A stretch of DNA of 64,000 bases. Source: a virus (taxonomy: Duplodnaviria; Heunggongvirae; Uroviricota; Caudoviricetes). The notes beneath the pieces were generated by a model. The model had not been told where the DNA came from. It worked only from the letters and a program-made list of their open reading frames with translations, and searched no databases. A program made the translations under genes and the position numbers. The stretch lies in IMG/VR virus record IMGVR_UViG_3300043399_000561; one strand, 5' to 3'. Numbering within the stretch: position 1 is the stretch's first letter; each line of letters begins with the position of its first letter. This document shows positions 15,898 through 47,000 of this stretch, in pieces.

Positions 15898-15947
15898 GTA
15901 AAACTCTCAGCTTCGGCTGTAGACCGAACTTAATCGGTCTTAAAAAC

Positions 15948-16024
15948 TGGTGCAACCAGAAGGATTCGAACCTTCAACCTTCGGTTTCGTAGACCGATGC
16001 TCTATCCAGTTGAGCCATGGCTGC
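15948..16024 (-). tRNA. tRNA-Arg(ACG)
   Basis: Anticodon loop CTACGAA, T-loop TTCGAAT, CCA. Confidence 0.85.
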
Positions 16025-16035
16025 GTGAAATTGTT

Positions 16036-16692: not shown

Positions 16693-16745
16693 CAGGAAAC
16701 TTTTCCTTTTTTGTTATTTAGTCCCGAAATTATTCGTAATTAATA

Positions 16746-16822
16746 TGGTAGACCCTGAGAGATTCGAACTCCCGACCTTCTGTTTCGAAGACAGACATTC
16801 TATCCAGCTGAACTAAGGGTCC
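16746..16822 (-). tRNA. tRNA-Arg(TCG)
   Basis: Anticodon loop CTTCGAA, T-loop TTCGAAT, CCA. Confidence 0.8.
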
Positions 16823-16833
16823 AAAATATTATA

Positions 16834-16907
16834 TGGTGCTCCCAGGAGGTACCGCCCCTCCGGCTCATCATTACCAATGATGTGTATTGCTTTTATACTA
16901 TGGGAGC
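16834..16907 (-). tRNA. tRNA-Thr(GGT) with non-canonical T-loop
   Basis: Anticodon loop TTGGTAA; T-arm GGAGG GGCGGTA CCTCC lacks the TTC; CCA. Confidence 0.6.
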
Positions 16908-16938
16908 CGACATCATATTTAGTATGCTAATTCCGGTG

Positions 16939-17535
16939 TTAATTTAAAGGAAGTCCTCTTGATGCTCTGCCATTGCCCTTATTACGACCTTTCCAAGTCG
17001 GCGTAATACTATGACAATTAGGACAAACTAATCTAAGGTTGGCGAATTCGTTATTTCCCGCGTTGCCGTCAATATGATCTAATTCCAACGACAATTTTGC
17101 GCCGCGCCATTCCGATATGCCACATTCAAAGCAGTTGCTTCCGTACTCACGAATCAACGCAGTTTTGATAGTCGTTCGTTCGGTTAGGTTTCCTTCATAT
17201 AATCGTTTTTTAGTGTCCTCTCTAGTAGGAATATGCTGGCAATCTGCACTACAATATTTTTTTACTAGGTGCTTAGAAGAGGTGTGTTTTTTTCCGCAGC
17301 CTGCACATTCCCATTCTACTTTGGTAGCTCTATTTTTATTAGAATGGGTAGCGGCGCAAGTGTGGTTACAGAATTTTTTGTGCCTATCAACATATGATAG
17401 TGTTTTGTTGCATTCCGCACAAGAACTAGGAGAACTGTCATAAAGTTCTACTCGTTGCAGTTTTTTCTTTTCTAAGGTAGCTCTGGCTTTTTTCATACCA
17501 AGCGCGCCTGCTTCTGCTTTTGTTAGTTTTCGCAT
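16939..17535 (-). CDS. HNH endonuclease with multiple CxxC zinc knuckles
   Basis: ELDHIDGNAGNNEFANLRLVCPNCHSITP. Confidence 0.65.
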   Translation of the reverse strand: MRKLTKAEAGALGMKKARATLEKKKLQRVELYDSSPSSCAECNKTLSYVDRHKKFCNHTCAATHSNKNRATKVEWECAGCGKKHTSSKHLVKKYCSADCQHIPTREDTKKRLYEGNLTERTTIKTALIREYGSNCFECGISEWRGAKLSLELDHIDGNAGNNEFANLRLVCPNCHSITPTWKGRNKGNGRASRGLPLN

Positions 17536-17600
17536 ATAATACTCTCCACAATGTATTTATGCTCTAGGTTCAAAACCAGCTAAAAGCAGCATTATAAAGT

Positions 17601-17674
17601 TGGATGCCCCTCTAGGACTCGAACCTAGGTTGACGGATTCAAAGTCCGCTCTCTTACCACTAGAGGAAGGGGCA
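17601..17674 (-). tRNA. tRNA-Gln(TTG)
   Basis: Anticodon loop CTTTGAA, T-loop TTCGAGT, CCA. Confidence 0.8.
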
Positions 17675-17692
17675 ATGTCAACTTGTAGACAC

Positions 17693-17721
17693 ATTATATA
17701 TGCGATTGCATAAAATGTCAA
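17693..17721 (-). promoter_or_regulatory. sigma70 consensus promoter TTGACA-N17-TATAAT upstream of tRNA-Gln(TTG)
   Basis: Perfect -35 and -10 hexamers with 17-nt spacer; -10 lies ~20 nt from the tRNA 5' end. Confidence 0.6.
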
Positions 17722-17727
17722 ATAAAA

Positions 17728-17803
17728 TGGATGCCCGAGATGGGGTCGAACCACCAACCTCCTGGTTCAGAGCCAGGCGATCTGCCAATTGATCTATCGG
17801 GCA
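17728..17803 (-). tRNA. tRNA-Gln(CTG)
   Basis: Anticodon loop CTCTGAA, T-loop TTCGACC, CCA. Confidence 0.8.
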
Positions 17804-22491: not shown

Positions 22492-23865
22492 TCACTTGTT
22501 AGCGTTTGCCCGAACTTCGTCAAAAGTCATATCACGAACAAGAACACCATTTTCAAAAACTGCTTCAAGCATATCCGTAGCAAAAATGTATTCACGGTCA
22601 TCGCTACGAACAGTATGGTACGTTCCATCAACAAACTTGATCAGCTTGAGCTTACCCTTCTTGCTCTGCTTGCCCTTGTCAGTGATCGGGTCCTTGAAAA
22701 CATCAACCCACTTACCATCAACAAGTGCCGCGCTGCACTTCATAGCGAAGCGGAAATCATCTCTATTCACAGTCTGAAGTAACATTCCGCCCTGACCGAA
22801 AGCCACATTGTCAGCACTGTAACCAGCAAGCGTGATCGTGTAGAGAATGCTACGAATAGTCTGGTGATTGATGCCGTCACCCTGCAAGACACGGACATTG
22901 TTCAATACCTTGTAGCCCTTGTCATTAACAGTGTGACCAAAGTTCTTGTCAAGAATCTTGAGGCACTTGCAGACAACATCAGCTGGATCTCCCGAGTCAG
23001 GACGAACAACAAGAGTAGCACCACTATCAAGAACATCCTGCTTAAGTTCGGTACCCCACATTTCGCAAGCAGCGAAAATGTCATAGCTGTCCGAAACACA
23101 AGCAAAGATACCACCTGGCTTTGCGTTCTGTTTGATCATATTGCGATAGCTGTCAACCTCGTGTTCACGCCCCCAGCTGGTTACAGTGCTGTGTTCCATT
23201 GCAGGAACGCTAAACCCAGCCATGTCAGCATTGTAATAACGACGGGCAAAAAGCAGAGCCTCAACGGTGTCGGTCCCTTGAAAATTAACCAAGTGCGCGG
23301 CACCACCAATTCCTGCACTTTCCAAACTGCTAACCCCACGAGCACCGAAATCGTGAAGTTTAAAATCAATAGTAGTAGGATCACCAGTTTTCTCCAGATA
23401 TTCAAGAATCAATTTCTTGTTTTCATAGCTGTTAGTAGCAACAGTAGTAGGATACCAAATTGCACGAAGCAGCGCCGTTTCGAGGAACGAAGTCAGCCAG
23501 TAACAGTTAGGATCAGTGTTTTCAATCGTAACGAGAACATTACCAGTAGGAATGACAAGACCCTCAGGTGCTGCTTTAATGCGAACAGGAAGATATCCGT
23601 TATGTTCTAGAAGAATGTAAATCCAGCCTTCTCGATTAAAAGGTTCGCCGTGTGCTGTAATGATAGCTTCCGCTTCTTGGATCATTTCAAGCGTAATCGG
23701 GGTAAGCAAATATTCCTTAATAAAGGCCTGAAGTCCGAAGAAAACAGTAGCATCGTGTTTGCCACCGCGGCTTTCAATGTAGCTGTAGATACCAGTTGTG
23801 TTGGGAGGGTATTGATTGAACTGCGAATACTTATAGCTATCCGCGTTAAGAATAATGTTGTGCAT
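22492..23865 (-). CDS. nadV: Nicotinamide phosphoribosyltransferase (NAMPT / NadV)
   Basis: Extensive colinear identity to NAMPT: DSYKYSQFNQYPPNT, VPEGLVIPTGNVLVTIENTDPNCYWLT, LHDFGARGVSS, HLVNFQGTDTV, SVPAMEHSTVTSWG, VVRPDSGDP. Confidence 0.9.
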   Translation of the reverse strand: MHNIILNADSYKYSQFNQYPPNTTGIYSYIESRGGKHDATVFFGLQAFIKEYLLTPITLEMIQEAEAIITAHGEPFNREGWIYILLEHNGYLPVRIKAAPEGLVIPTGNVLVTIENTDPNCYWLTSFLETALLRAIWYPTTVATNSYENKKLILEYLEKTGDPTTIDFKLHDFGARGVSSLESAGIGGAAHLVNFQGTDTVEALLFARRYYNADMAGFSVPAMEHSTVTSWGREHEVDSYRNMIKQNAKPGGIFACVSDSYDIFAACEMWGTELKQDVLDSGATLVVRPDSGDPADVVCKCLKILDKNFGHTVNDKGYKVLNNVRVLQGDGINHQTIRSILYTITLAGYSADNVAFGQGGMLLQTVNRDDFRFAMKCSAALVDGKWVDVFKDPITDKGKQSKKGKLKLIKFVDGTYHTVRSDDREYIFATDMLEAVFENGVLVRDMTFDEVRANANK

Positions 23866-23920
23866 AATAGAACTCCTCTATTTAAAATGCTAGCTTCTAT
23901 CAGCTAGACTTGATGATTGA

Positions 23921-23948
23921 CTATAACAAATCTCTAGCAGAATGTCAA
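23921..23948 (-). promoter_or_regulatory. sigma70-type promoter TTGACA-N17-TATAGT upstream of nadV
   Basis: Exact N17 spacing; about 45 nt upstream of the NAMPT ATG. Confidence 0.5.
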
Positions 23949-24541
23949 CCGAATTCTACAAGGGTGACGGACCCGCCCTTACTAGAAACCTTTTCAGCAA
24001 AGTCTTCAATCATCGCAATGATGCGATCCTTATCACCCCCTGCAAGTCCCATACCGATGTAGGGGAAGCCGAAATTAAACATTTCCCCACCAAGTTGTCG
24101 GGCAGGCTTAGTTGCAGTTTGCCATGCCTTGGTATTTCCCTTGCCTGACCTCCAGCGAGTTTCAGCAAGTTCATTAGCAACCTTAGCACTGTCTTCGGAA
24201 TGTGCTACCTTTTCATACAGTGTGTCAAGAATGCGCTGGAATGCTTCATATTCAAAATGATCCTTGTCACGAGGTGCAAAGTCATATTGAGTATACGCAT
24301 TCACTATGAGAAAAGGATTATCCGCTTTTTTTACTACTTCAAGAGAGAAGGTACCTAGTTTGTCCCTATCACTCTTTACCGTAGCAAGGTCAGCTTCATA
24401 TGCCTCCGGATATCGTTCACGAATCTCCTTAGCGATTCCAGAACCCATCGTGTGGTGACAATTACAACCATGAACTATCACAGTGAATTCTCCCTGTTCA
24501 GCGAGGTCAATGAGATTTCCCTTAGTGTGCTTAAGCATCAT
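23945..24541 (-). CDS. Macro-domain protein (ADP-ribose / ADPR-1''-phosphate binding or processing)
   Basis: GNLIDLAEQGEFTVIVHGCNCHHTMGSGIAKEI matches the GDIT..AIVNAAN..L.GGGV macro core; C-terminal FPYIGMGLAGGD glycine motif. Confidence 0.65.
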   Translation of the reverse strand: MMLKHTKGNLIDLAEQGEFTVIVHGCNCHHTMGSGIAKEIRERYPEAYEADLATVKSDRDKLGTFSLEVVKKADNPFLIVNAYTQYDFAPRDKDHFEYEAFQRILDTLYEKVAHSEDSAKVANELAETRWRSGKGNTKAWQTATKPARQLGGEMFNFGFPYIGMGLAGGDKDRIIAMIEDFAEKVSSKGGSVTLVEFG

Positions 24542-24741
24542 CGTCTCCGATCCGTGAAAACATTTTTACCGCATTGCGGGCACTTGATGCCGCGATCAAC
24601 CGAATAATCACCTAAATAATCGTAGCTGTGCTTGATGGACTGCACTTCACTCTGGGTATATTCTAGAACCGAAGCACAAGACCAACAAGTAACACGATGG
24701 ACGGCTGATTCGTCTCTTCCTACAACCTTAACCATAATCAA
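24538..24741 (-). CDS. Small zinc-ribbon protein (CxxC...CPQC)
   Basis: 67 aa; CWSC and CPQCG pairs; start and stop overlap both neighbours (coupled). Confidence 0.45.
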   Translation of the reverse strand: MIMVKVVGRDESAVHRVTCWSCASVLEYTQSEVQSIKHSYDYLGDYSVDRGIKCPQCGKNVFTDRRR

Positions 24742-25787
24742 AGCCCCAGAAAATATTGAATGATATGAAAGTGATCATCAAACAGGTCTTCCTCACGAAG
24801 ATCACCAATCGGTACCCACTTTGCCTTTTCAGCATCGTCAGCACCCTTCACCTTTGGCAATGTAACATCGTCTGCCAACTTGAAGTGGTATGCCTTCGTG
24901 ATAACACGACCAAGCGTAGAACGATAAGGATCGTCAAAGGTTTGATGGTCACGAATGCTACCACGCAATACAGCTTCCGGAACCTTGATCTTGGTTTCTT
25001 CACGAAGTTCACGAATAGCACCATCAAGCTGACGCTCAAATTCGTTTAGGTGACCGCCAGGCAATGCCCACAGTCCCTTACCAGGTTCTGCTTTACGCTT
25101 GACAAGCAGGATGTGACCACTCTGTTCAACTACTGCATCAACAGTGGCGTGCTTCACAGGATAGGGCGAAACTTCCCACTGCTTCTTGTAGTTACGAACG
25201 AACTTAAGTTCACTCTGCAATTGCTTAAAAGCATCGGTGTTATAAAAGTTTATAATGAACTGTAGAACGCTTTCAGGAATAGCATCATTATGAATAAACT
25301 CTCCCGACAACCACTTCTCCCGAATATAGGTAGCGTGAACATCAGCCTGAATCTCAACATTCACCGAGCGAAACTGTGGGAACATCTTTAGATAATAGCT
25401 GGTGTTATCCTTGCTAGCACCGATCAATCCAACCTTAGCATCGTTGAATCCATTTGCGCGGAAGCCGAAGTTGTTGACAACATCAAGCACAGTGTCCTTA
25501 ACGATATGCTGAACCTGATTGATCCAGGCAGCTTCGTTATATGTCTTGTCATAGAGTGGCTTGATGATCAGCCTAGATGCATCTCCGCCGCGCATAGCAC
25601 CAAAAATCATATCTGCTCGTTCTTGGAACGTGAATGGGTTACGGATCGTGCGGGCCTTACCTGCCGAACCTACGAGAACCAATACATTTTTAGATTTTTG
25701 TAGCGCAATATCGATAATACGCTTATGCTCGTTGTGTAGTGGCTGAAACCTACCTACAAAGACCAATAGGTCAAACTCTTTTTCCAT
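24738..25787 (-). CDS. natV: Bifunctional NMN adenylyltransferase / Nudix hydrolase (NadM-Nudix, NatV-like)
   Basis: N-terminal GRFQPLHNEH (HxGH nucleotidyltransferase motif); C-terminal Nudix box GGHLNEFERQLDGAIRELREETKI. Confidence 0.85.
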   Translation of the reverse strand: MEKEFDLLVFVGRFQPLHNEHKRIIDIALQKSKNVLVLVGSAGKARTIRNPFTFQERADMIFGAMRGGDASRLIIKPLYDKTYNEAAWINQVQHIVKDTVLDVVNNFGFRANGFNDAKVGLIGASKDNTSYYLKMFPQFRSVNVEIQADVHATYIREKWLSGEFIHNDAIPESVLQFIINFYNTDAFKQLQSELKFVRNYKKQWEVSPYPVKHATVDAVVEQSGHILLVKRKAEPGKGLWALPGGHLNEFERQLDGAIRELREETKIKVPEAVLRGSIRDHQTFDDPYRSTLGRVITKAYHFKLADDVTLPKVKGADDAEKAKWVPIGDLREEDLFDDHFHIIQYFLGL

Positions 25788-27882: not shown

Positions 27883-27957
27883 TGGCGCGCTCGGTGGGAT
27901 TCGAACCCACTGTCTCGGGCTTTAGAGACCCTTGCAATACCATTTAGCCTCGGGCGC
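27883..27957 (-). tRNA. Isolated atypical tRNA-like gene (8-nt anticodon loop, 1-nt variable region)
   Basis: Acceptor with one C:A mismatch, T-arm GTGGG TTCGAAT CCCAC and CCA. The only stem available for the anticodon is GTCTC/GAGAC around loop TAAAGCCC. Sits just upstream of the peroxiredoxin gene. Confidence 0.4.
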
Positions 27958-29235: not shown

Positions 29236-29457
29236 TCATTCTACGAACTCCAAACTAGTAACAACTGCGCTTTCATATTCAGCAAGACCGCGGTGTTCGT
29301 CTTCAACTAACTCCTTCAACTCATATGCTAAACTCTTTTCGGGAGTAGGATGAACAACAAAATGGTTTCGCTGATGGTAGGATATTAAATCCTCAATTGA
29401 AGAAAATCTATCTTCATCAAAATGAACATCAAATTCAATAACAGCACGAACACGCAT
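29236..29457 (-). CDS. Hypothetical small acidic protein (73 aa)
   Basis: ORF track. Confidence 0.35.
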   Translation of the reverse strand: MRVRAVIEFDVHFDEDRFSSIEDLISYHQRNHFVVHPTPEKSLAYELKELVEDEHRGLAEYESAVVTSLEFVE

Positions 29458-29526
29458 TTTACATTCTCCGTAGCAATCTATTAGAATCTCACTATATGTT
29501 ATTTATGTTCCTAAGTCAACCAAAAA

Positions 29527-29560
29527 AATAGCCTCTTTCGAGGCTATTTTCTTTTATTGA
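29527..29560. terminator. Bidirectional rho-independent terminator
   Basis: AAAAAAAT AGCCTC TTTCG GAGGCT ATTTTCTTTTATT; lies immediately 3' of the TonB-dependent receptor gene. Confidence 0.65.
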
Positions 29561-29570
29561 GATTGTAACA

Positions 29571-31811
29571 TTAAAAGTGAAGTCCCAACGAGACTCCATA
29601 TGTCCTGGGCTCTCTAGCAAAAGCCAAAGACCAAAGACCTACTAGGTTTCCTGCGGCGTGAACTGGGCCTCTAGAATTAAGTAAATTGTGACCCCAAAAT
29701 GTCAACTTAGCATCTGCGCCATTAAGTGAAAACGATGTAGCTACACTTGCATCTAATAGATTCAGCGCAGGTGAGCGAACACCTGGGTCCATTGTCAATA
29801 CTTTATAATTTTGTGTCCCGTTTGCATTTGAACTTAGTAAAATTCCAGGTCCTTGCGAATTATAAACATCGTGTGGACCTACGTAACGATAAGCAAGATT
29901 AAAATTAACATTTTTTAGTGTATAATTAACACTCGCTGTTCCCATAAACTTTGGAGCGTAGATCATATCTACACTAGACAAGTCGTAGGTATCAGTCAAT
30001 GGAGCCAAATTCGGGTTAGGAGAATTAATAACAAATCCATTATAACTCGTCTTTAATGCAGAAAATGAACCATTAAATGTTAAATTATTAACTGGCTTAT
30101 ATGAAAGTTCTAGCTCAACGCCTTTAATGTTGCTTGAAGCAACATTCGCAATTACGACCTCATTTCCGGTTGGGCCTCCTGGAATATTAGTAATTTGCTG
30201 CATACCTTTATATTTTGCAACAAATCCAGCAAGTGATATATTCAGTTTGTTATCAAACAAAGAAACCTTGGTTCCTAATTCAAAAGAATCAACAATCTCT
30301 GGATTGAATGGTGTAGTTGCTGATACAGGAGTCAGTCCGCGTAAAGAAAATCCGCCCGAACGATAACCCTGAGACCAAGAAGCATATACCATAGTATCCT
30401 TGTTTATATGATAATCCACGCTAACTCTAGGAGTAAATCTATTGAAATTCTTAGATGAGTCTCCTAGTTGATAGAAGAAGAACTGGTTTAACCACTTCTT
30501 GTCGTGAGTCCATCTGCCCCCCAATTCTAATCGCAAGTTGTCAGTAATATTTGCGTTAACATCACTGAAGAAAGCGTAAGAAGTTGTTCCTCCCTTAGCA
30601 ACTTGAGCATTAGGTAACGAAAGAGAACCCCCGACCCACGAACCAAAGAATCTAGTGTTCATTGCGTGGTAGTAGCGACCATCATAGAAATAAGCACCAA
30701 CTACATAATCAATAGAATTATTAATGTTGCCTGCTGCTCTCAACTCTTGACTATATTGACGAAATGTTTGTTGTCTATAGATAGCAGAAAAATCCAATGA
30801 AGTTCCGTCAAAATCCTGCCACTGATATTCGGTTGACTTCCTATAAGATGAAATGGATGTTAGCTTGACTGCATCAAGATCGTAATTCATTTCCAACGTC
30901 ACTGATGGAGCAGAAAAATATGTTTTAGGTTCGTTACCATCAATAGTATTTCCAAAAACAGTGTATAAATCAGAAGTTAGATTGCGATTGCATTGGTTAG
31001 AAGGAATTAATGCACAAAGATATTCGCCGTTTTTAGTTGTCGAAGAAACATAAGGATTTGATTCTTGAATCTGCTTCTCAACAGTTAATAAAGCATTAAA
31101 ATTATTGCTGGGTTCATATAAGAAACTTGCACCGAAGTTTTCATTATTATATCCTCCTACACTCTTTCCATCAGATGCTCGGTGTAGGAAGCCGTCGCTT
31201 TGACTATGAAAATACCAAAGCTTAGTAGAAATAGAGTCTGCCAACTTAGGCAAGTTTACTACTGTTTTTGCAGTGTATGAATTATAATTTCCGTAAGATA
31301 CATCTGCCTTAACATCAAGTCTGCCTAGAGGTCTTGTTCTCTTGATATTAATTACGCCGCCTATAGTGTTTCTACCGAACAGAGTTCCCTGAGGACCTCT
31401 CAAAATTTCAAGTTGTGAAGTATCATACAAATCCAAATATTGTCCAGTGCTTGTTCCGATAAAGACACCGTCAACCACTACAGCAACTGTTGGGTCATAG
31501 GATTTTTCAACATCAGCAAATGACATTCCCCTGATAGATACACTTGCTGTTCCGGCTGCCGAAGGCTGTGCGTTGAAAAGCACATTTGGGGCAATGCCCA
31601 TCAAGTCGCCGGTGTTTACATTACCGCGAAGATCCAGCGTTTTTGAATCAATTGCAGTGATGGCGATAGGAGTATTTCGTAGTTCTTCGTTTCTGTATCT
31701 AGCAGTAACGATGATATCATTGGGATTTTCTGTCTCAATTTTATTAGGTGCAGCGATTGCACTAGTTGATGCTAATAATGAAAGACATAGCCCAAATAAA
31801 TATTTCTTCAT
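29571..31811 (-). CDS. TonB-dependent outer-membrane receptor/transporter
   Basis: Start trimmed to MKKYLFGLCLSLLASTSAIA (signal peptide) with RBS AAGGAAAG. TonB-box-like DIIVTA, plug domain, about 700 aa of beta-barrel sequence, terminal aromatic ...LGLHF. Confidence 0.8.
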   Translation of the reverse strand: MKKYLFGLCLSLLASTSAIAAPNKIETENPNDIIVTARYRNEELRNTPIAITAIDSKTLDLRGNVNTGDLMGIAPNVLFNAQPSAAGTASVSIRGMSFADVEKSYDPTVAVVVDGVFIGTSTGQYLDLYDTSQLEILRGPQGTLFGRNTIGGVINIKRTRPLGRLDVKADVSYGNYNSYTAKTVVNLPKLADSISTKLWYFHSQSDGFLHRASDGKSVGGYNNENFGASFLYEPSNNFNALLTVEKQIQESNPYVSSTTKNGEYLCALIPSNQCNRNLTSDLYTVFGNTIDGNEPKTYFSAPSVTLEMNYDLDAVKLTSISSYRKSTEYQWQDFDGTSLDFSAIYRQQTFRQYSQELRAAGNINNSIDYVVGAYFYDGRYYHAMNTRFFGSWVGGSLSLPNAQVAKGGTTSYAFFSDVNANITDNLRLELGGRWTHDKKWLNQFFFYQLGDSSKNFNRFTPRVSVDYHINKDTMVYASWSQGYRSGGFSLRGLTPVSATTPFNPEIVDSFELGTKVSLFDNKLNISLAGFVAKYKGMQQITNIPGGPTGNEVVIANVASSNIKGVELELSYKPVNNLTFNGSFSALKTSYNGFVINSPNPNLAPLTDTYDLSSVDMIYAPKFMGTASVNYTLKNVNFNLAYRYVGPHDVYNSQGPGILLSSNANGTQNYKVLTMDPGVRSPALNLLDASVATSFSLNGADAKLTFWGHNLLNSRGPVHAAGNLVGLWSLAFAREPRTYGVSLGLHF

Positions 31812-31913
31812 ATTTCTTTCCTTTATACTAATAATTATCTGAAATAATATGTTCCAAAAAAAATCCAGATAAGGCGGTGCCCACTCTTTCAAGCGGGCAC
31901 CCATTTTATCTAC

Positions 31914-33293
31914 TTACTTAGAAGTTTCTTTCTTAGCAGGTTTTGCGTTAGGTGCACCCAACTTAGTGATTACACCGTTGACAAGAGCCTGACCTTCTTC
32001 TGTCTGGCTAAGAGCAGTCAACATACCTGCAATGCTAGTTCCGCCCGCCGGGCTGAACACGCCTGCAAGATTAGACATACCGCTCTGTACATCACCGCCG
32101 TTAGCGATGATCTTAAGATCAGCAGCCTTAATAGCTCCAGCCATTTCCTTACCAACAGCTTCGGTAGCTTCAACATTACGAATCTTGATGAGATAATCCT
32201 GATAACTCTGGTTCTCACCGATTTCCTTAGCAAGCGTCATTTGAGCGTTAACCGGGGCAAGCAAGATAGCCTTTTCAGCTTCACCCTTAGCGATACCCTC
32301 AGCCTGAATACCTTCTGCATTCTTGAGAGTAGCCTGTAGATTACCTTCTGCAATCTTAATTGCAGCTTCACGCTCGGCTTCTGCACTCACCACCTTGACT
32401 CGCTGATCCTGCTCTGCCTTAACAACAGCAACTTCACGCTCGATTTCAGCAGTCTTGACGCTCTGAACCTTCTGTACTTCCATCTGTCGTTCAGCAGTAG
32501 TCTTAGCTTCTGCCTGAACTTCCTGCTCACTCTTTTCCTGAGCGATGCCGACGATCTTTTCCTTTTCGGCTTCACGAAGACCGACAGTCTGTTCAGCTTC
32601 TGTCTTGCTCAATGCAATCTGTCGCTGGGCTTCAATTTCTCGGGATTCAGCTTCCTGCAAGTTCTTCGCAACTTCCATACGACTTTCCTTTTCAATAAAG
32701 GACTTTTTCTTCGCCATAATGTTGTGAATAACCTGGCTGTTCTGTGCGTCACGAATGTTCATAAACTCAATAGTCTTAACAGTCTGGACACCCCATTCCT
32801 TAAGACCTTCGTCAACAACAGCAGAGAATTCTGCGCCCATTGTAGCACGATCTGTCATAATGTGATCAAGGGTATACTTAGCAAGAACATTACGAACAGC
32901 ACCTTGTAGAACACCAGATAGCTGATCCTTGAGTTCCTGGAAGTTAGAAACACGCTGGGCAGCAGTCTGACTATCGCTTACTCGGAAGAATGCACGAACG
33001 TCTACGAGAAATTCAAGACGATCAACGTCATATGCATCGTAATTGAGCAGGTTCAAGTCAAACACTGACAATGGGAACTTACTGACTGTGACACCGATCT
33101 TGGGAATCCAGCTGGGGAATTCATAGTAGCTGTTGCCGGCTTCAAGTCCAGACCCATATGAGATAGACTTCTTACCTGACTGAACGATATGCACTTCGTT
33201 AGTAGGGACAACAACGCGCCAAAAGAGGGCGCAAATAATGCTAATGCCGACAATAGCAGCAAGAGCAATCAAACCAATAAAAATCATATTCAA
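31914..33293 (-). CDS. SPFH/band-7 (flotillin/YqiK-like) membrane protein
   Basis: N-terminal TM helix, SPFH core, long Glu/Ala/Lys-rich coiled coil (EAQRQIALSKTEAEQ...), Gly/Ala-rich C-terminus. Confidence 0.75.
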   Translation of the reverse strand: MNMIFIGLIALAAIVGISIICALFWRVVVPTNEVHIVQSGKKSISYGSGLEAGNSYYEFPSWIPKIGVTVSKFPLSVFDLNLLNYDAYDVDRLEFLVDVRAFFRVSDSQTAAQRVSNFQELKDQLSGVLQGAVRNVLAKYTLDHIMTDRATMGAEFSAVVDEGLKEWGVQTVKTIEFMNIRDAQNSQVIHNIMAKKKSFIEKESRMEVAKNLQEAESREIEAQRQIALSKTEAEQTVGLREAEKEKIVGIAQEKSEQEVQAEAKTTAERQMEVQKVQSVKTAEIEREVAVVKAEQDQRVKVVSAEAEREAAIKIAEGNLQATLKNAEGIQAEGIAKGEAEKAILLAPVNAQMTLAKEIGENQSYQDYLIKIRNVEATEAVGKEMAGAIKAADLKIIANGGDVQSGMSNLAGVFSPAGGTSIAGMLTALSQTEEGQALVNGVITKLGAPNAKPAKKETSK

Positions 33294-33299
33294 TATTCC

Positions 33300-33821
33300 T
33301 TAGTTAGAGTTAGAGGTAAGAACAACGATAGTAGGATCGCTGATACGAAACGGCTTGTCACTGTAAAGGTACTTACCAGCCCACTGAAAATACTGACCAT
33401 CAGTAGTCCAGAAGAACACATAAGGGGTAGAGTTACCATAAGTGCCTTCATCGCTAGGAGCTTCGACTACTTCATAGCTACATCCGCCACCTGCGACGCC
33501 AAGACACTGAAATTCCTGAGGGCGAGTCAGTCGCTTGCCACCAGAAGTGATCTTACCCTTGACACTTGCATACATTACGGGCTTGCCCATTTCATTAAGC
33601 AATAGAACGAATCCGATCTGACCCGGATTACTTGTCAATTCAAGACGCTGCTTGATATTGTCAATTTCAGCATTTTCATTAAACTTAATTGAATTAGCGG
33701 CAGCAGCAGCCTTTTCAGCTTGAACATCCTTAGCAGTCTTTGGCTCAGACTGAACATCACACCCAGCAAGAGCAAATGATGCTGCAAGAGCAGCAACAAT
33801 TCCAAACTTATTCATAATCAT
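33300..33821 (-). CDS. Lipoprotein (lipobox LAGC), unknown function
   Basis: MNKFGIVAALAASFALAGCD. Confidence 0.5.
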   Translation of the reverse strand: MIMNKFGIVAALAASFALAGCDVQSEPKTAKDVQAEKAAAAANSIKFNENAEIDNIKQRLELTSNPGQIGFVLLLNEMGKPVMYASVKGKITSGGKRLTRPQEFQCLGVAGGGCSYEVVEAPSDEGTYGNSTPYVFFWTTDGQYFQWAGKYLYSDKPFRISDPTIVVLTSNSN

Positions 33822-33825
33822 TTCC

Positions 33826-34224
33826 TTATTCGCAAACAGTTACATCAAGTTCGTAGGGAAGGTTGCGATCCTTAAACAGCCCACGATTAAGCTTCTTACT
33901 ATCAGCATTATAGCCATTAGCAAGTTCTCGGCAGCTTTGCTTCATACCCGAGAGTTCGATCCTAAGATTAGTCTTTTCAGTAGGATCAGTCGTTTCTGCA
34001 AGCAATGCCTTGTGTTCCTTAATCTGCGAAACACGAGATTCATAGTTTGCATTAACATCGAAGAATCGTTCATAATTGAAAACGATGTTGTTGGTTTCAA
34101 GTGTCTTGTTGATGACACGGCCGGGAGCAGTAGCAGCGGTATTAAAAACACCGAGATAAGTGCATCCTACCGGGACTGCAACCAGAATTAGGGCACCAAC
34201 TGCCACTATGCGTAATACGGACAT
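33826..34224 (-). CDS. Lipoprotein or membrane-anchored protein (VGCT), first gene of the operon; start trimmed to MSVLRIV
   Basis: RBS AAAGGAG 7 nt upstream of this ATG. Confidence 0.5.
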   Translation of the reverse strand: MSVLRIVAVGALILVAVPVGCTYLGVFNTAATAPGRVINKTLETNNIVFNYERFFDVNANYESRVSQIKEHKALLAETTDPTEKTNLRIELSGMKQSCRELANGYNADSKKLNRGLFKDRNLPYELDVTVCE

Positions 34225-34255
34225 TTTTACTCCTTTATGCCGTTGTAATAATATA

Positions 34256-34284
34256 GTTATATGTGAATGTATAGAGAATGTCAA
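34256..34284 (-). promoter_or_regulatory. Strong sigma70-type promoter TTGACA-N17-TATAAC for the lipoprotein / SPFH / TonB-receptor operon
   Basis: Minus strand reads CTTGACA TTCTCTATACATTCACA TATAAC, then AAAGGAG and ATG. Confidence 0.65.
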
Positions 34285-34565
34285 GCAGAGATTTCAGCTT
34301 CGGGCAAATCAATATGTCGAGGTCCTTCGGTCTTGAACCACTCAAGAACCTCTTGCTTATTCTTACCGAAGAAGGAAACATCCATACCAAAGTGCTTGGT
34401 ACTATTGAAAATCTTACCCTGCCAAGCTGGCCCGCCGGCATTCTTAGGACGACTGGTAAACTTAAGTTGTCCGACAACCTTGCCGTTATACTTGACAGCA
34501 AAAGTGTGAAAACGTTCGTTCTGCAAATCTGCAAAACCGTTGAGAACTTTAGCGAGAGTCCACAT
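34281..34565 (-). CDS. Hypothetical protein (94 aa)
   Basis: ORF track. Confidence 0.4.
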   Translation of the reverse strand: MWTLAKVLNGFADLQNERFHTFAVKYNGKVVGQLKFTSRPKNAGGPAWQGKIFNSTKHFGMDVSFFGKNKQEVLEWFKTEGPRHIDLPEAEISA

Positions 34566-34894: not shown

Positions 34895-37800
34895 TTATTT
34901 TACCCAGCAATCACAATTGCACTCAATAACCTTAGCAATCGCATCCTTGACGCTTAATGTTGCCGGAAGCAGTGTGCTGCTTGTATAGTTAGGATCTAAA
35001 TTATAAGGGACATTTGAAGGATCTAACTGGGAAGGAGGCTGAATTATAGGTATGCCGTCGTCACCTAAGTTGTTCGGTGATTCTGTAACTCCAGTCAAAT
35101 CAGTGTCAGGCATATAGATAGTAGAATTTTCATCTGATGTGCTAGGACCAACTGGTACATATGGGCCGACAACCGGATTGTCTGTTGTGCCGGCTATAAT
35201 AGGATCAATGACACCAAATGCAGGCGCAACATCAGTTGTTTCTTCAAATGTTCCAATCAATCCGGTATCAGTGGGCGTATATATTCCATCTGGAATAGGG
35301 CTTACTTCTTCATTGTTTATAATATTAACAGGCCAAGATGGCTCAGTATAGCCATTTATATCATTGTTTAGTCCAGCTAGAACAGTTCCATTTGTCGTTA
35401 ATGTTTTAAAATCCATTGCTGATATTTCGTCAGGGATATTATTATCTAACCCAATACCAATATTTGACAATCGCGCTTCATTTCTATCTTGTCGCATTGC
35501 ACCCACAACACTTTGACCCCCTACTAGATCAAGATTGCTTATTGCTTCAAGTGTCTGCACTGACATATGGGGCCTAGTGTCTTGTGCAAAGCCGGGGAGT
35601 GCATCAACAAAAACAATAGTTGTTGTGGGATAAGGATTTATCCAAGTATTTTGTGGAATTGGAACAGGTTGTAATAGATTATATCTAGTTCTCTGTTCAA
35701 TCAATAATTGCTCACCCAAAAGATTCCAAAAAATGTTTAAGTATTCTGCTTCTTGAGGATATGTCAATGCAAATTCTTCTATGAATTCATTTGCCTGATC
35801 AATATATGCTTGAACCACTCCATTCATTGGACTAGCCCAACCAGTCGTGCCGTCAGGCGTATTAGTTCCGCCCGTTGCTACTGAACCGTCTGGCTGAATT
35901 GGGAGAGTAGCAGTCGGGGGACATTCTACTGTAATAGTTACATTTGGGGGCGCATTGCCTCCTGTTAGTGATGGCGGATTGTCATTTAAATAATTATAGA
36001 CGGTGTTGTAATTCACCGAAGAGCCGTCGTTGGGGGGACCAAACGTTATTCGGCCGAACGTCCCTTCTCCGTTTGACCCCGCATTTTTATCATCAGTCCC
36101 TACAATAGCAGTCATTGAAGCACCTCCGGGATTGGGAGTAATTGTAACAACCGGGGCGGGTGCCGTTCCTCTACCATATCCTCCTCCTAAGCCATCACCG
36201 GCAACAGCTAACGTATACGAAAGTGTGTCTATTCTAGGCTGACAGCAAGGGTCTGTAGTTGGCGTCCCAGTACCGCATTGCAAATATGGATTCGTTGGGT
36301 CAATTGAAGGATAATCAGGATTGGCTGCATTTGCAATATAATGCTGAACGTTTGTATAGGTTGGAGTAACTTCTACTGTAGCGGTAGCTGGTTCCCATTC
36401 TACTGCTAAAAATAACTGCTGATATATGTTTTTTAATTTGTCTAATGGCAATTCGTTAAACTTATTATAAATCGCTTCCCAAGGATAGGGAAGTCCACTC
36501 ATACAACCGAACATATCAGAAAATGTATAAGTTCCATATGGTCCTGTTCCCAAAGATAAATTCGTTATCGCGTTGTCAGTTGATGCTTGATTTGTGGGTT
36601 TACTAGTACCATTGATCAATGACAGCCCGGCAGTATTTTCCATTGCTTTAGCGACTTTAGCAAACTTCTTAGAATCTGCCTGGTGAATCTTACCTACTTG
36701 ACGCATAGTGAATTGAAATGCGCCGGCGGCTATAGCCTGGTCATCCGGTAATATTCCTCGTAAGTAAGAACCAAATCCTTGCGTAGGCTCTTGATAATTT
36801 TCAGGAGATAAACTACCTTCTGCAATGGGAGGAGGACCATATGGAAGTTGCACTCCCACATAATCTTCCATATCAGGAGTAGATAACGCAGAATTTACTC
36901 CCTCACCTTCGTAAATCAAATAGTATGTTTTACTATTTGTAGGTAATCCTACCTCGCTATTATACATAGGAACAGTTAATGATTGATATGAATTAGGGAA
37001 AAGCTTTTTAACATCTAACAAATCAGCTAATGATTCTAATCCTGCTGTTTTACATTGCAAAGATGCTAAGATAGTTGCAAGATTTTGTCCTTGAATTAAT
37101 TTAAATGACTCGTATATTTTTTGTTCTTGATCCGTAGTAGGTCTTGTTAATGTACCGTTAGTGATCGCAGCTATCTCTGATCCTGACAATCCCGCAGTAA
37201 GCAACAATAAAGAAAGGTCTTGCGTAACCGCAATGTTTTTACCAAGAATTTCTAACAAGACAGAAGGTAAACCAAATGCATCCAGTCTACTTAAATTTAT
37301 TATTTTACCTAACTTTTCTAAATCGCTTCCAAATTCTTTAGTTGATAAACTAATTCCAGATACATCAGCAGTAATTAAGTCATCCATATTACTATAGATA
37401 TTATCCATAAAATCATCAGAATTATGCGAGGTCATTATAGCACGATTAATATAATCTATAGCACTAGACGCTGACAAAAATGATCCGCAAAATTGACCAT
37501 AGTCCGGATTCGCTTGATCAGGAACGCCATTATAATTAAACTCATCCCACGCTTGTAGTGCGTGTAATCTTGCATAACCCCACTGAGTTACTGATTTATT
37601 GGGGTTAGAAGTATCATATGGTATCCAAGAAGCTTCTTGGCCCTGCCCAGTGTTTCCTGAAATACCATACGAAGTCGCGGCAGGTGTCCCTGCATCAGTC
37701 CATTTACCAGAAGGATCATTGTCCTTAAAAGTAGGTGGTTTGGCGTTACCTAATGCTTCTACTTGATCTTCACCTATCGAAATTAGATTATCGTATGTCG

Positions 37801-38041
37801 AGTTAGTGACAGTTTTTTCTGGACCGGATACTGCAACACCGCGAGCATATGCATCATTAATCGCATAAGTCAATAGTCGTAATACGGTTCCGTTAACTAG
37901 TTTTCCCATATCATACTGAGAATTAGTTTTGCTTTTTCCTATATATGATTCAGCTACCGGGTTAATGTTCAGTCCCGTATTAACTAGAAATGATCCTAAG
38001 ACATTTACTCCTAATGGATTTTGTTTACCTGTGTCTGACAT
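34895..38041 (-). CDS. Large virion structural protein (1048 aa), probably baseplate- or tail-associated
   Basis: Immediately downstream of the PAAR gene; Gly/Pro/Thr/Asn-rich C-terminal half typical of fibrous or structural proteins. Confidence 0.45.
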   Translation of the reverse strand: MSDTGKQNPLGVNVLGSFLVNTGLNINPVAESYIGKSKTNSQYDMGKLVNGTVLRLLTYAINDAYARGVAVSGPEKTVTNSTYDNLISIGEDQVEALGNAKPPTFKDNDPSGKWTDAGTPAATSYGISGNTGQGQEASWIPYDTSNPNKSVTQWGYARLHALQAWDEFNYNGVPDQANPDYGQFCGSFLSASSAIDYINRAIMTSHNSDDFMDNIYSNMDDLITADVSGISLSTKEFGSDLEKLGKIINLSRLDAFGLPSVLLEILGKNIAVTQDLSLLLLTAGLSGSEIAAITNGTLTRPTTDQEQKIYESFKLIQGQNLATILASLQCKTAGLESLADLLDVKKLFPNSYQSLTVPMYNSEVGLPTNSKTYYLIYEGEGVNSALSTPDMEDYVGVQLPYGPPPIAEGSLSPENYQEPTQGFGSYLRGILPDDQAIAAGAFQFTMRQVGKIHQADSKKFAKVAKAMENTAGLSLINGTSKPTNQASTDNAITNLSLGTGPYGTYTFSDMFGCMSGLPYPWEAIYNKFNELPLDKLKNIYQQLFLAVEWEPATATVEVTPTYTNVQHYIANAANPDYPSIDPTNPYLQCGTGTPTTDPCCQPRIDTLSYTLAVAGDGLGGGYGRGTAPAPVVTITPNPGGASMTAIVGTDDKNAGSNGEGTFGRITFGPPNDGSSVNYNTVYNYLNDNPPSLTGGNAPPNVTITVECPPTATLPIQPDGSVATGGTNTPDGTTGWASPMNGVVQAYIDQANEFIEEFALTYPQEAEYLNIFWNLLGEQLLIEQRTRYNLLQPVPIPQNTWINPYPTTTIVFVDALPGFAQDTRPHMSVQTLEAISNLDLVGGQSVVGAMRQDRNEARLSNIGIGLDNNIPDEISAMDFKTLTTNGTVLAGLNNDINGYTEPSWPVNIINNEEVSPIPDGIYTPTDTGLIGTFEETTDVAPAFGVIDPIIAGTTDNPVVGPYVPVGPSTSDENSTIYMPDTDLTGVTESPNNLGDDGIPIIQPPSQLDPSNVPYNLDPNYTSSTLLPATLSVKDAIAKVIECNCDCWVK

Positions 38042-38049: not shown

Positions 38050-38316
38050 TTAAGGTACAAAAATGTCTGGGCTACCTTGCGAAATAGGATGACCGCAAGT
38101 ATTTCCTGACCCAACCCGTAGAACAGGACAATTTTCAACAAACACAGTAGGACTACCTTCTGTGGTTTTTGCTGAGGCGTGTGGACCAATACCGTGAGAA
38201 GTAATATCGCTTACGTGCAGTCCTACTGGAATACCGTTTGCAAATACTGTTCCTGCACCGCGTATAATTCGGCCGCCGCCGGAATCTTGATCGCCTTTTC
38301 TACTAAGTTGTGGCAT
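38050..38316 (-). CDS. PAAR-repeat spike-tip protein (T4 gp5.4-like)
   Basis: 88 aa with repeated G-x-P-x-(A/G)-x-x-(G/S)-D and HG/CG units: GIPVGLHVSDITSHGIGPHASAKT, CPVLRVGSGNTCGHP. Confidence 0.6.
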   Translation of the reverse strand: MPQLSRKGDQDSGGGRIIRGAGTVFANGIPVGLHVSDITSHGIGPHASAKTTEGSPTVFVENCPVLRVGSGNTCGHPISQGSPDIFVP

Positions 38317-44096: not shown

Positions 44097-47000
44097 TTAG
44101 AAGAAAAGAAAGAATTGTCCACCGACAGTAGAAATTAATACACCTATCATATAGGTTATATTAAGATAATCTACCGTGCCAGCAACATAATATATGCCAG
44201 TATTATTTCCATTATCATCTGTATTAGCTCCGACATTCCAAGCAGTAGCTTTACTAAGTGTATATTGACTTGTATTTGTAGATGTCAGATATGTTCTTAC
44301 ATTTGAGATACCGTTGACGCTGAATGTGGTCAGACTTTGTGTAGATCCACCTTCAAATAAAATAATAGTAGGCGATGCTGAATTAGTCAAAGTATCAATT
44401 GTATTATTACCATAGATGAATAAAGGACTAGCGCCAGCAGATATAGTTCCGTACTCTAGACCGCCACCATAGAATGACTGATTTCCAGCAGTACCAGTGA
44501 ATGTTATATTAAGTGGTGTTGTATATGTTAAGCCTGTAGTATTTTCTATTTCAAATACTGGTATAAATCGTGAATATCCTGAAAATACTCCTTCATCTTT
44601 ACCGGTAATATTAATTTGACCTGAACCTTGAGTAATAGTTTTAGCTGAAGTATCTAATATACTAATACCTTTTGTTGTTAGATTAAATCCGTTCAAATCA
44701 AATGTACCTGAGACTAGATAAAAGCCTCCTGTGTCATTTGTGGAGTTTAAAGTTAGATTGTCAAGTAGCCTCAATGTTCCTGAAGTTTTAATTACTTCTA
44801 TTAAGATACCCCCTGATCTACCATTTGATTTAATAGTCTGATCTGTTGATCCTCGAAATGAAAAAATAAAATTAGTAGTAGTTAAATCTACTGAGCTACC
44901 TAAATCAACATCACCATAAATAAAGATAGAATTTGAAAGACCAGTAGGTTTTCCCCCGAATCCAGTTAGATTTAAGTTATTGATATATCTGTTAGTTAGA
45001 TTCAATATATCTGTTCCAGCAGTTACATTAATATTTACAGAAGTGACAGAAGAATCAAGTAAATTTATACTTCTCGTTCCAGTTGCACCACTATAAGTAC
45101 AATTGAACGTAGGTGTGCCGGTCATAGTGAGATATGTTCCTACACCATTTTGATAACTCAAAATAGTAGCACTATTACCAGTCAAATTAATTGTACTAGT
45201 ACCAAATGTTATAGTTCTATTAGTAGGAACAAATGTTTCTGTAAACGAAGCACCAGTCAAAGTAAACCCATTTAGATTAAGCGTACCTCTTCCATGTGTA
45301 ATAGTACCTGTTGTAGTCGTAGCAGCACTTAACTGAACCGTTCCTGTATTAACAAGATTCAGACCATAGGTCATTGTGATACCAGCAGTATTAATACTTT
45401 GTGTGCCAGTTCCAATAAAGTTGATAGCTGTCGTACCAGAAGAGGTCAACGAGCTATAAAGAGTTAAACTACCAGTCATCCAAGGCGCAAATGATGTACA
45501 AGCTAAAGTTGTAGCCGTAGTTCTAGAAGCATATGTAATTGAACCGACAAGATAGTTTGCATTATATGTTACTACTTGACCAATTGCGGTACCATTATTT
45601 GTAAATGCAGCAGTATCCTGTGCTAATGGAAAGTTATTTAAAGCAGGAGTACCAGACGGAGCAGTAGCCCAAGCAGTAGCAGACCAATTTTGAGGAGTAC
45701 CTGTTAAATTCCAGTATACAGTTTTAGCTGCTGGAAATGTAATATTGCTATTACCACTACCATTACCCAGTCTTGTACCTGACCATGTACCAGCAGCACC
45801 AGCCGCTGTAATATTATGGAAATCAATATCTGTAAAAGTTCCGACCGCTGCTGCTGTAATTGTTGTAGTTGTGTCAAACGAATACAAAAATGTTCTATAG
45901 ATTACACTGGTACCAGCATTAAGTGTAAATGTTCCATTAACTGTTACACCAGTACAGCCTTGGAACTGAATTCGAGATATGCCGACGGAACCTGATCTAC
46001 CAGTAACCGTGAAATTATTACAAGTAAACGAAACCGTAGATGTATACGCCGTACTACCTATATAGGTTGAACTGCCGATATAGATATTACTGATTGTGGT
46101 ATTAGTAAATGAAAGATTACGAAATGTAGCCATACCATCTAGAATTAAGGCAGATGTTGTTCCGCTAAATGTTATAGTACTTGTACCGGCGTTGAATGTA
46201 GTTGAACCATTACTTAACCCGTAAAGTCTAAGTCCAGTACTAGAGGAGCCTCCAGTTATAGTTATTGTGGAGGAACCTAGATTTGTTGTTCTATTAAATG
46301 ATGAACTAGAGTCAATATAAACTCCTGCACAAGTTACATTATAATTTTGGGTATTGAAAGTACCAAAATATTGCTGTATTTCGCTACCTAATGTTATAGC
46401 AGAGCCGAGATTAAGAGTACCAGAGCCGTATACTAACAATGATCCTGTAATTGATATAGCAGAACTAGTAAATGTTTGTGTATCTGTATTAATAAAAACA
46501 AAACTATAACTAACGCCCGAAACTGTTACACCAGAGCCTAAATTAACATCTCCATTCACGACAGGATAATTAAAACCAGGTATACTTAATGTTACAGCAC
46601 TGGTTCTGGCACTCATATTAAGAGTACCTATCATATAATTAGCATTTATGGTAACGGTAGTTGCTGCTCCGGTATTATCAAAAATACAAGTATCTTGTGG
46701 CAAAGGAAAGTTTGCGGCAGCAGGTGTGCCACCAGAACTTGTAGCCCAAGCTGTAGCATTCCAATTTTGTGTACCAGTTAGATTCCAATAAACAGTCTTT
46801 GTTGCCGCGAATGTAATATTACTATTTCCCCCTGCATCGCCAAGCCTTGTGCCTGTCCATGGTGTAGCTGGACCAGAAGCCACAATATTTTTGAAATCAA
46901 TATCATCAAGACCTGAAATAGCACCAGCATAAATTGTTCTTGTGGCAGGTGTGAGGCTGCCAATAAATGCGAGCCTAGCAGTATTAAGTAATGTTCCTGT

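Follow-up and report, generated by a model that had tools for sequence, protein, structure and literature searches.

Most auxiliary genes known from bacteriophages act in cytoplasmic metabolism or encode periplasmic binding proteins. For lysogenic conversion or exclusion, phages also carry small barrels, porins and lipoproteins, among them Lom and Bor of lambda, the porin Lc of phage PA-2 and, acting on FhuA, Llp of T5; to our knowledge, none of these is an energised TonB-dependent transporter. Closer precedents exist as annotations. Annotations of the marine megaphage Mar_Mega_1 and of LR745206 include a putative SusC-type TonB-dependent receptor, which was proposed to raise nutrient uptake during infection (Michniewski et al. 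2021, PMC9723777), and six TonB-dependent transporters are listed in phages of ammonia-oxidising bacteria, where they were interpreted as serving the uptake of iron or haem or as related to receptors (bioRxiv 10.64898/2026.05.02.722434). Our literature search found no experimental test of a phage-borne TonB-dependent receptor. Here we examine a stretch of 64,000 nucleotides of DNA assigned to Caudoviricetes (IMG/VR record IMGVR_UViG_3300043399_000561), which we call the window, and within it a locus of four minus-strand genes that encode two small envelope proteins (g1 and g2), an SPFH/Band 7 flotillin-like protein and a TonB-dependent receptor. We present evidence that the receptor gene is intact, resides in phages, has a single origin, is under purifying selection and occurs independently of its SPFH neighbour, and we weigh nutrient uptake, the best-supported reading of its role, against other explanations.

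A predicted TonB-dependent transporter encoded by phage DNA

The receptor gene (29571 to 31811, minus strand) encodes 746 residues and has every feature that a first-pass annotation of the window, made from the sequence alone, had ascribed to it: a signal peptide, a TonB box, a plug, a barrel and a C-terminal phenylalanine. The signal peptide, as read from the sequence, covers residues 1 to 21 (31811-31749), with cleavage as in MKKYLFGLCLSLLASTSAIA|AP. The TonB box DIIVTA lies at residues 32 to 37 (31718-31701), with I33, V35 and A37 invariant in the phage clade described below and V35 and A37 retained across all 50 homologues sampled, and the terminal residue, Phe746, is invariant in the phage clade and nearly so across the 50. 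In Pfam searches the protein exceeds the cut-offs for both Plug (PF07715; 58.7 bits vs 23.9) and the barrel (TonB_dep_Rec_b-barrel, PF00593; 130.7 bits vs 27), and these matches, together with a Band_7 match for the SPFH protein, bear out the gene identities first proposed.

An AlphaFold2 model of the receptor (pLDDT 79.9, pTM 0.81) shows a 22-strand barrel plus plug. Foldseek returned 301 PDB matches to this model at E <= 0.001, and all 50 of those listed are TonB-dependent transporters. The closest solved structure is the yersiniabactin/pesticin receptor FyuA (PDB 4epa; target-normalised TM-score 0.88, Foldseek E 3e-40), which shares the 22-strand barrel and plug fold at a sequence identity of just 19%, too low to allow inference of a substrate; solved relatives as a whole are 12-19% identical. 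Sequence and modelled fold together identify the product as a predicted full-length TonB-dependent outer membrane transporter. Positions invariant among the receptors comprise the TonB box, the plug motifs IRG, DG, RGP and GG, the terminal Phe, and residues R94, R138, E505 and E566. The last four resemble what we take to be the plug-barrel "lock" residues of FepA, a likeness that serves as a lead and not as a test.

A single phage clade under purifying selection

Among 50 sampled homologues, the ten closest proteins, which are 53-59% identical to the window's receptor, form one clade with neighbour-joining bootstrap support of 100/100. The receptor is carried by at least six related phage contigs, and the receptor-carrying contigs L006, L007, L008, L100, L101 and L102-104 have GC contents of 0.39-0.44. 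Five of them (L006, L007, L008, L100 and L102) share the backbone genes o94, o87, o73, o187 and AhpC with the window at 63-92% identity. All copies of the receptor are full length (740-769 residues) despite amino acid divergences of 42-47% from the window copy; truncation in other assemblies, which would have undercut the first-pass reading, was thus seen in none of the related contigs. Between phage receptors, the proportion of synonymous sites that differ (pS) is 0.72-0.78, which is saturated, vs a nonsynonymous proportion (pN) of 0.13-0.31, a pattern indicating that the gene has been under purifying selection through a long residence in phages. Base composition conveys the same history: GC content at third codon positions (GC3) is 0.293 for the window's receptor and 0.27-0.38 for the phage copies vs 0.70-0.72 for bacterial homologues, and this phage-like GC3 implies that the capture is old and no artefact of assembly.

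The closest cellular homologues are receptors of the Sphingomonadaceae (Sphingorhabdus, Sphingobium, Novosphingobium), which are 47-51% identical along their full length and share the domain order and invariant motifs of the phage receptor. They differ in having a GC3 of about 0.70 and in lying beside genes for oxidoreductases (dehydrogenases, GMC), P450 and glutathione S-transferase, and the phage genes form a clade separate from them. Sequence relationships therefore point to a single origin of the phage receptors and to full adaptation to phage. The receptor also matches the PHROGs family phrog_5687, annotated as of unknown function. A scan of IMG/VR with the receptor alignment, a method that reaches close relatives only, found no relative, and a scan of JGI metagenomes recovered only bacterial-type homologues at <=48% identity, so that the phage clade is represented in Logan and ENA assemblies only.

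One further feature of divergence concerns the SPFH gene next to the receptor. In the same phage pairs (window, L006 and L007), pS is 0.75-0.78 for the receptor vs 0.40-0.47 for the adjacent SPFH gene. The deeper receptor divergence may reflect exchange of cassettes among phages or the maintenance of old alleles.

TonB-dependent receptors are common receptors for phages and colicins, and FhuA-pb5, FhuA-Llp (structure 8a60) and FpvA-pyocin S2 are among the structural matches of the window's receptor, which brings up an alternative to nutrient uptake: the protein could be a decoy or replacement surface receptor, or a titrator of TonB, that blocks superinfecting TonB-dependent phages or bacteriocins. 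The position of the cassette beside early-expressed envelope genes would suit such a function, as would the deeper pS of the receptor if it does record old alleles maintained or exchanged. Yet the surface loops are not hypervariable. Within the phage clade they are as conserved as the barrel strands (0.66 vs 0.66, by an approximate DSSP-based assignment on the model), which speaks for a conserved ligand and against a surface that serves as a decoy or is shaped by an arms race. In addition, features that serve transport only, namely the plug motifs and R94/R138/E505/E566, are invariant although a decoy has no need of them (TonB titration would still require the TonB box), and the BtuB-like partner and metabolic neighbours found in sister phages fit uptake better. 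We therefore regard exclusion as an unlikely primary explanation, if one worth keeping in view.

Phage identity of the window

The window is DNA of a large, uncultured, tRNA-rich phage. It contains 35 tRNA genes in 64 kb and encodes a class Ia ribonucleotide reductase, NadV and NatV, and a peroxiredoxin, along with matches to tail fibre and baseplate proteins, a PAAR protein and a glutaredoxin. All annotated genes except one lie on a single strand, and GC content is uniform throughout. A 12-kb megablast query found no match among 50,697 phage records, and the phage has no close relative in culture. A Logan assembly of run SRR35181291 equals the window at 100% identity over 20.7 kb, though the run and the JGI contig may share their raw data.

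Bacterial homologues of the receptor at approximately 50% identity might suggest that the locus is ordinary host DNA, a prophage junction or a chimeric assembly, the circumstance under which the first-pass reading would have fallen. The surroundings speak firmly against this. All genes identified to the left and right of the locus in the 64 kb are of phage type, no attachment site or host housekeeping flank was detected, and neither an integrase nor a gene of host origin turned up among the open reading frames (ORFs) scanned. Phage promoters likewise lie on either side, GC and GC3 are phage-like, and the same arrangement recurs in another assembly and in related phage contigs of other samples. 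A host or chimeric origin is accordingly hard to credit at all. No integrase being among the scanned ORFs, the tRNA-rich phage appears to be of the lytic type.

Promoters, terminators and two units

All of the signals and genes originally described for the locus were found where they had been placed, on the minus strand. Gene starts given here are those with ribosome-binding sites, which agree with the gene calls on the other assembly; the mechanically derived ORFs begin too early. A sigma-70-type promoter read from the sequence, TTGACA-N17-TATAAC (34256..34284; TTGACA at 34284-34279, TATAAC at 34261-34256), serves the genes g1, g2 and SPFH, and a ribosome-binding site, AAGGAG (34230..34235), precedes the g1 start codon at 34224 by 5 nt. 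There follow g1 (132 residues, 33826..34224), g2 (171 residues, 33300..33815) and the SPFH gene (457 residues, 31914..33287), then a terminator-like hairpin with a run of eight uridines, U8 (31856..31912), ahead of the receptor gene. A bidirectional intrinsic terminator with an 11-bp stem and T-runs on both strands (29525..29550) closes the receptor cassette, and L101 has, downstream of its receptor gene, a counterpart 95% identical to the 41-nt stretch that includes this terminator. On the far side of this terminator, the backbone gene o73 has its own minus-strand promoter, TTGACT-N17-TATAGT (29519-29491).

The promoter upstream of g1 belongs to a recurrent set. Between 3862 and 51439 the window contains 13 sites of the form TTGACA-N16-18-TATA, every one on the minus strand, which is the coding strand, vs 0.81 expected from shuffled sequences, an excess that marks them as a real promoter class of the phage genome and not chance matches. 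The exact form TTGACA-N17-TATAAC is present in four copies, and many of the 13 sites have the unusual -10 hexamer TATAAC. Judged by their sequence, these are phage promoters that would be read by a host-type sigma factor.

The SPFH and receptor genes are separated by a gap of 102 nt in which an 11-bp GC-rich hairpin is nested within an outer 7-bp stem (31912-31866) and followed by U8 (31863-31856). The 121-nt intergenic stretch has a folding energy of -34.6 kcal/mol (z = -4.32), which none of 200 shuffled sequences equalled. The hairpin is kept in L006 and L007 with compensatory changes, and canonical terminators directly follow the SPFH gene in the more distant contigs L092 and L095. The proposed four-gene operon is therefore correct in its gene order and ends, but it is not a single unit: the conserved hairpin and U8 divide it into a three-gene operon and a downstream receptor cassette.

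Many gene starts are preceded, at a distance of 15-30 nt, by a second recurrent motif, ATAAATA, for example at 7552, 9460, 10563, 12144, 13986 and 17554, with further examples at 25844, 26123, 29500 and 60381. The coding strand has 20 of the 23 copies, while the total count equals that expected by chance. The motif resembles the T4 late promoter TATAAATA, and in L092 and L095 TATAAATA comes directly after the SPFH terminator. Upstream of the receptor gene stands TATAAAGG, a near-match to ATAAATA. A candidate Fur box in the same region, matching the E. coli consensus by eye at 12 of 19 positions in AT-rich sequence, is not counted as evidence.

An accessory hotspot with interchangeable cassettes

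The four genes occupy an island bordered by backbone genes: on the left o94 (34281..34565, minus strand), with 73% identical homologues in L007 and L100, and on the right o73 (29236..29457, minus strand), with a 70% identical homologue downstream of the receptors in L008. In L007 the o94 homologue precedes the island, and in L100 the receptor region comes directly after it. Between o94 and o73 or o187, the content of the island differs among the window, L006, L007, L008, L100 and L102, and the receptor thus occupies a variable position between conserved backbone genes as a non-core gene, as is characteristic of morons and auxiliary genes.

The contents, given here as far as each contig reaches, illustrate the variation. 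Where the window has g1, g2, SPFH and receptor, L007 has a 58-residue ORF, a second Band_7 gene (265 residues), SPFH, a nucleosidase-like gene and the receptor. L006 has a fragment of a Band_7 gene, SPFH, a nucleosidase-like gene, the receptor and a BtuB-like second receptor, and L008 a nucleosidase-like gene cut by the contig end, followed by the receptor and again the BtuB-like second receptor. In L101, L103 and L104 an S-adenosylmethionine (SAM) synthetase precedes the receptor, and in L100 the receptor follows o94 and two small ORFs in the absence of any SPFH gene. Such variation implies that SPFH and receptor are independent cassettes in one hotspot.

Several of these neighbours have metabolic connotations. 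The BtuB-like gene lies directly downstream of the first receptor (L006 4523-6352; L008 2684-4561). Its two products align end to end with the B12-receptor model TIGR01779 (293 and 271 bits, below the cut-off of 599.7), their best solved relative is BtuB in the PDB (2e-44), and no report of a phage-encoded BtuB-like gene was found in the literature. Directly upstream of the receptor, a gene of approximately 180 codons resembles nucleosidases for methylthioadenosine and S-adenosylhomocysteine (MTA/SAH) in L006 (1714-2256) and L007 (3352-3891), and the SAM synthetase gene takes that position in L101 (311-1408) and L103 (479-1579). MTA/SAH nucleosidases also remove 5'-deoxyadenosine, an inhibitory by-product of radical SAM enzymes. 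The neighbours in sister phages weakly suggest a link to cofactor supply.

A locus so clearly given over to interchangeable cassettes, together with the want of a dedicated promoter for the receptor, could also mean that the receptor is a functionless passenger of the hotspot, of no benefit in the lytic cycle. Passengers of this kind are difficult to reconcile with copies that stay full length across 42-47% divergence, with pN far below a saturated pS, with a base composition adapted to phage and with invariant functional motifs, and we consider the passenger explanation improbable.

The g1-g2-SPFH module

The SPFH protein matches Pfam Band_7 at 66.4 bits (cut-off 23.6; 4.5e-18). Its architecture comprises an N-terminal hydrophobic segment (residues 1-30), the SPFH domain and a C-terminal region rich in Ala, Glu, Lys and Gln, as befits a membrane-anchored Band_7 protein. 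Equivalence to the bacterial flotillin FloT finds no support in family models (NF058507, 17.9 bits vs a cut-off of 700); the closest solved relative is QmcA or stomatin, and an NfeD-type partner gene next to SPFH is not supported. At least 1465 homologues exist, the best 120 of which (63-100% identical) are all metagenome proteins on contigs of up to 455 kb.

Among cultured phages, SPFH proteins 45-59% identical to that of the window occur in Brevundimonas jumbo phages, Ralstonia phage RP13, Xanthomonas phages X1 and BUDD, and Vibrio phages of the genus Thalassavirus. The Brevundimonas phage Domovoi resembles the window in having NatV and NadV after the SPFH gene. Unlike in the window, none of these SPFH genes has a receptor next to it, and g1 and g2 were undetected beside SPFH in the four such loci examined. 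The paper on Xanthomonas phage X1 does no more than list the SPFH gene. Three large phage contigs (125, 139 and 213 kb) have the g1-g2-SPFH order of the window, the receptor in none of them and NAD-salvage genes downstream of the triad in two; the triad without receptor is the arrangement of L091, L092 and L095.

As side observations on this neighbourhood, NadV and NatV lie downstream of SPFH in the window (22492-25787), as they do in the Brevundimonas jumbo phages (L001, Domovoi), L092 and L095, and this synteny of SPFH with NAD salvage holds across very different GC contents. A 90% identical SPFH homologue, P0392, lies on a contig of 317,681 bp, from which the phage group of the window may include jumbo phages.

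The first gene of the triad, g1, encodes a protein with an N-terminal hydrophobic segment (residues 1-31). It had been taken for a lipoprotein, but its candidate lipobox, PVGC, is non-canonical and the corresponding Cys21 is not conserved in the family alignment. The protein is for these reasons no lipoprotein and is instead predicted to be a bitopic, signal-anchored membrane protein with a periplasmic domain, in which the invariance of C98 and C131 fits a periplasmic disulfide. Its homologues fall into 282 cluster representatives, and it has no Pfam, PHROG or NCBIfam match. A hit to AbiB among defence-system models (E 4.8e-4) is weak and was treated as chance; the defence-system models gave no other match.

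For g2, the lipoprotein assignment stands: the lipobox LAGC is at residues 16-19, with a nearly invariant Cys and an Asp at +2. Behind it lies a beta-rich periplasmic domain with a Cys104/Cys112 pair, in a family that is highly conserved in phages (781 homologues, <=85% identical apart from one identical copy) and whose domain homologues occur also in phages of Gram-positive hosts. Confidence in a structural model of g2 was too low for fold assignment.

The two genes are adjacent in 32 of 34 IMG/VR loci (L106-L139), whose GC contents range from 0.32 to 0.71 and whose contigs reach 518 kb, and SPFH follows them in only three of the 34 loci. Their distribution marks the g1-g2 pair as the most stable core of the triad and as a putative, widespread phage envelope module. 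On the basis of gene order and topology, roles considered for the triad are those of a spanin, of superinfection exclusion and of membrane stabilisation. The gene order and predicted topology of g1 and g2 do fit a two-component spanin; contrary to that comparison are the conserved beta-rich domain of g2, its homologues in phages of Gram-positive hosts, the Asp at +2 and the fact that no lysis gene is adjacent.

Sequence comparisons thus indicate that g1, g2 and SPFH are phage-specific families and form one module of many large phage contigs that lack the receptor. The label "host-like" attached to the operon by the first-pass annotation is consequently wrong for three of the four genes, the homologues of g1, g2 and SPFH being phage or metagenome families. 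A related suggestion, that the SPFH protein is the microdomain partner of the receptor, also fails, given the receptor without SPFH in L100 and the triad without receptor in L091, L092 and L095.

A stronger version of that suggestion would have all four proteins in one complex, with the small envelope proteins and the flotillin-like scaffold organising or stabilising the receptor. The four genes are indeed adjacent on the same strand, with one strong promoter upstream and a terminator downstream, and SPFH and receptor lie together in L006 and L007 too. Apart from the contigs just named in which one occurs without the other, the SPFH genes of cultured phages have no adjoining receptor, none of the 34 IMG/VR loci has a detectable receptor, and L007 has a second Band_7 gene in place of g1 and g2. 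The conserved hairpin or terminator after SPFH separates the two units, and SPFH proteins are proteins of the inner membrane whereas the receptor belongs to the outer membrane. A four-protein complex is in our judgement very improbable.

Proposed role of the receptor

Nutrient uptake is the best-supported reading of the receptor's role. In its specific form, that the receptor is an auxiliary uptake gene, energised by host TonB, that imports a limiting micronutrient or cofactor, we give this reading about an even chance of being correct. The mechanism would begin with two units. The first would be a phage-specific early operon, consisting of promoter, g1, g2, SPFH and hairpin terminator, for envelope proteins. 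The second would be the receptor cassette, captured once by an ancestor of the lineage from an alphaproteobacterial (Sphingomonadales-like) donor and then adapted to phage. The receptor gene would be transcribed during infection, probably through read-through of the hairpin from the sigma-70-type promoter, and its product would pass through host Sec to the outer membrane, where host BAM would insert it. The TonB box would couple the receptor to host TonB-ExbBD, and a scarce substrate that limits phage production would be imported. Going by the genes near the receptor in sister phages, our leading guess for that substrate is a micronutrient or cofactor that would supply phage enzymes dependent on SAM, B12 or iron.

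A number of observations weigh against this reading. On the side of expression, no sigma-70-type promoter was recognised directly upstream of the receptor gene, and the hairpin and U8 may block read-through into it, so that transcription of the gene would depend, at best, on read-through or else on a promoter of an unrecognised type. Synthesis and insertion of a 22-strand barrel are slow for one lytic cycle. No riboswitch or known RNA was found in the operon, matches to NRON and a histone stem-loop being spurious and lying over the terminator. Neither TonB nor ExbB nor ExbD was seen among the phage ORFs scanned, and it is for this reason that the mechanism draws on host TonB for energy. As for the substrate, no NCBIfam substrate family reaches its curated cut-off for the receptor (the best match is TIGR01785, at 71.6 bits vs 316.85; TonB-B12 reaches 37.3 vs 599.7), and the closest bacterial homologues lie beside oxidoreductase and catabolic genes with no iron or B12 genes among them. 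Finally, the window has no BtuB-like gene, nucleosidase or MetK of its own, and MetK occurs elsewhere in a related phage (L126), so that its adjacency to the receptor may reflect the hotspot and not a shared function.

The first-pass annotation had pointed to iron or B12 as substrates, citing two B12-dependent radical SAM genes, and both of these genes are present in the window. The B12 idea gains indirect support from the BtuB-like second receptor in two sister phages. An extended form of the uptake hypothesis would hold that large aquatic phages of one lineage carry genes for their own import of cofactors across the outer membrane, a TonB-powered "vitamin piracy"; we think this doubtful. The proposed set, for which we would be equally hesitant to argue, would consist of the receptor, often with a BtuB-like cobalamin receptor and enzymes of the SAM cycle, feeding the phage's B12-binding radical SAM enzymes and iron-dependent enzymes while infection proceeds. 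If the uptake reading is true, some phages rewire the infected cell's uptake from its surroundings by means of an energy-coupled outer membrane transporter. Such rewiring would matter for the cycling of iron and B12 as micronutrients in natural waters and for the ways in which the host surface is reshaped by phages.

Additional features of the window

The two B12-binding radical SAM proteins (509 and 493 residues) are encoded by adjacent minus-strand genes at 3890-6909, and neither reaches a curated family cut-off. Near the pair, at 9021-9413 and 7021-7530, are genes for an AdoMet-decarboxylase-like protein and a protein with a cREC_REC (cyclic-phosphate processing receiver) domain.

An array of 34 tRNA genes, with small ORFs between them, extends from 3599 to 17803. 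Two ORFs in the array (10726-11292 and 16939-17535) match the HNH region of IscB/Cas9 models as HNH-type nuclease genes and are probably homing endonucleases. A further tRNA (27883-27957, minus strand), in a region 82% identical in L006, has the anticodon CUA of an amber suppressor and is labelled tRNA-Pyl by ARAGORN. No sign of stop-codon recoding tied to it was found in the window, where only 4 of 52 genes end in TAG, the rarest stop, and read-through after each would be short.

Three very large ORFs belong to no Pfam or PHROG family: 44097-51062 (2321 residues), 54180-57710 (1176 residues) and 34895-38041 (1048 residues). The 1176-residue protein has only a 200-residue tail fibre-like segment in common with freshwater and marine phages, and the 1048-residue ORF, for which there was no phage match, comes after the PAAR gene (38050-38316).

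Comparison with known systems

The first-pass annotation called a TonB-dependent receptor in a phage very unusual. Rare it is, as only 6 of 50,697 phage records match the window's receptor at E <= 1e-5, all of them metagenome-derived and at most 28% identical, but the precedents from marine megaphages (PMC9723777) and phages of ammonia oxidisers (bioRxiv 10.64898/2026.05.02.722434) mean that it is not new. With Mar_Mega_1 and LR745206 the window shares a TonB-dependent receptor gene in a very large uncultured phage genome (PMC9723777). The receptor of Mar_Mega_1 differs in being SusC-like and linked, by annotation, to carbohydrate uptake, whereas that of the window is of a Sphingomonadales type, and LR745206 is not among the six matching records. 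The transporters of the ammonia-oxidiser phages were assigned to siderophore and haem families; the window's receptor, by contrast, reaches no family cut-off and belongs to a tRNA-rich, apparently lytic phage in whose scanned ORFs no integrase appeared.

Lom, Bor, Lc and Llp resemble the window's receptor as phage genes that alter the host surface, often from accessory positions. Beyond the receptor, the present analysis defines a widespread phage envelope module, the g1-g2 pair, with a flotillin-like protein after it in some contigs. Relative to the systems described so far, what appears to be new, from sequence comparison, is a distinct, phage-adapted clade of receptors with documented conservation, monophyly and selection across a phage lineage, located in a hotspot where sister phages have, in addition, a predicted BtuB-like receptor and genes of the SAM cycle.

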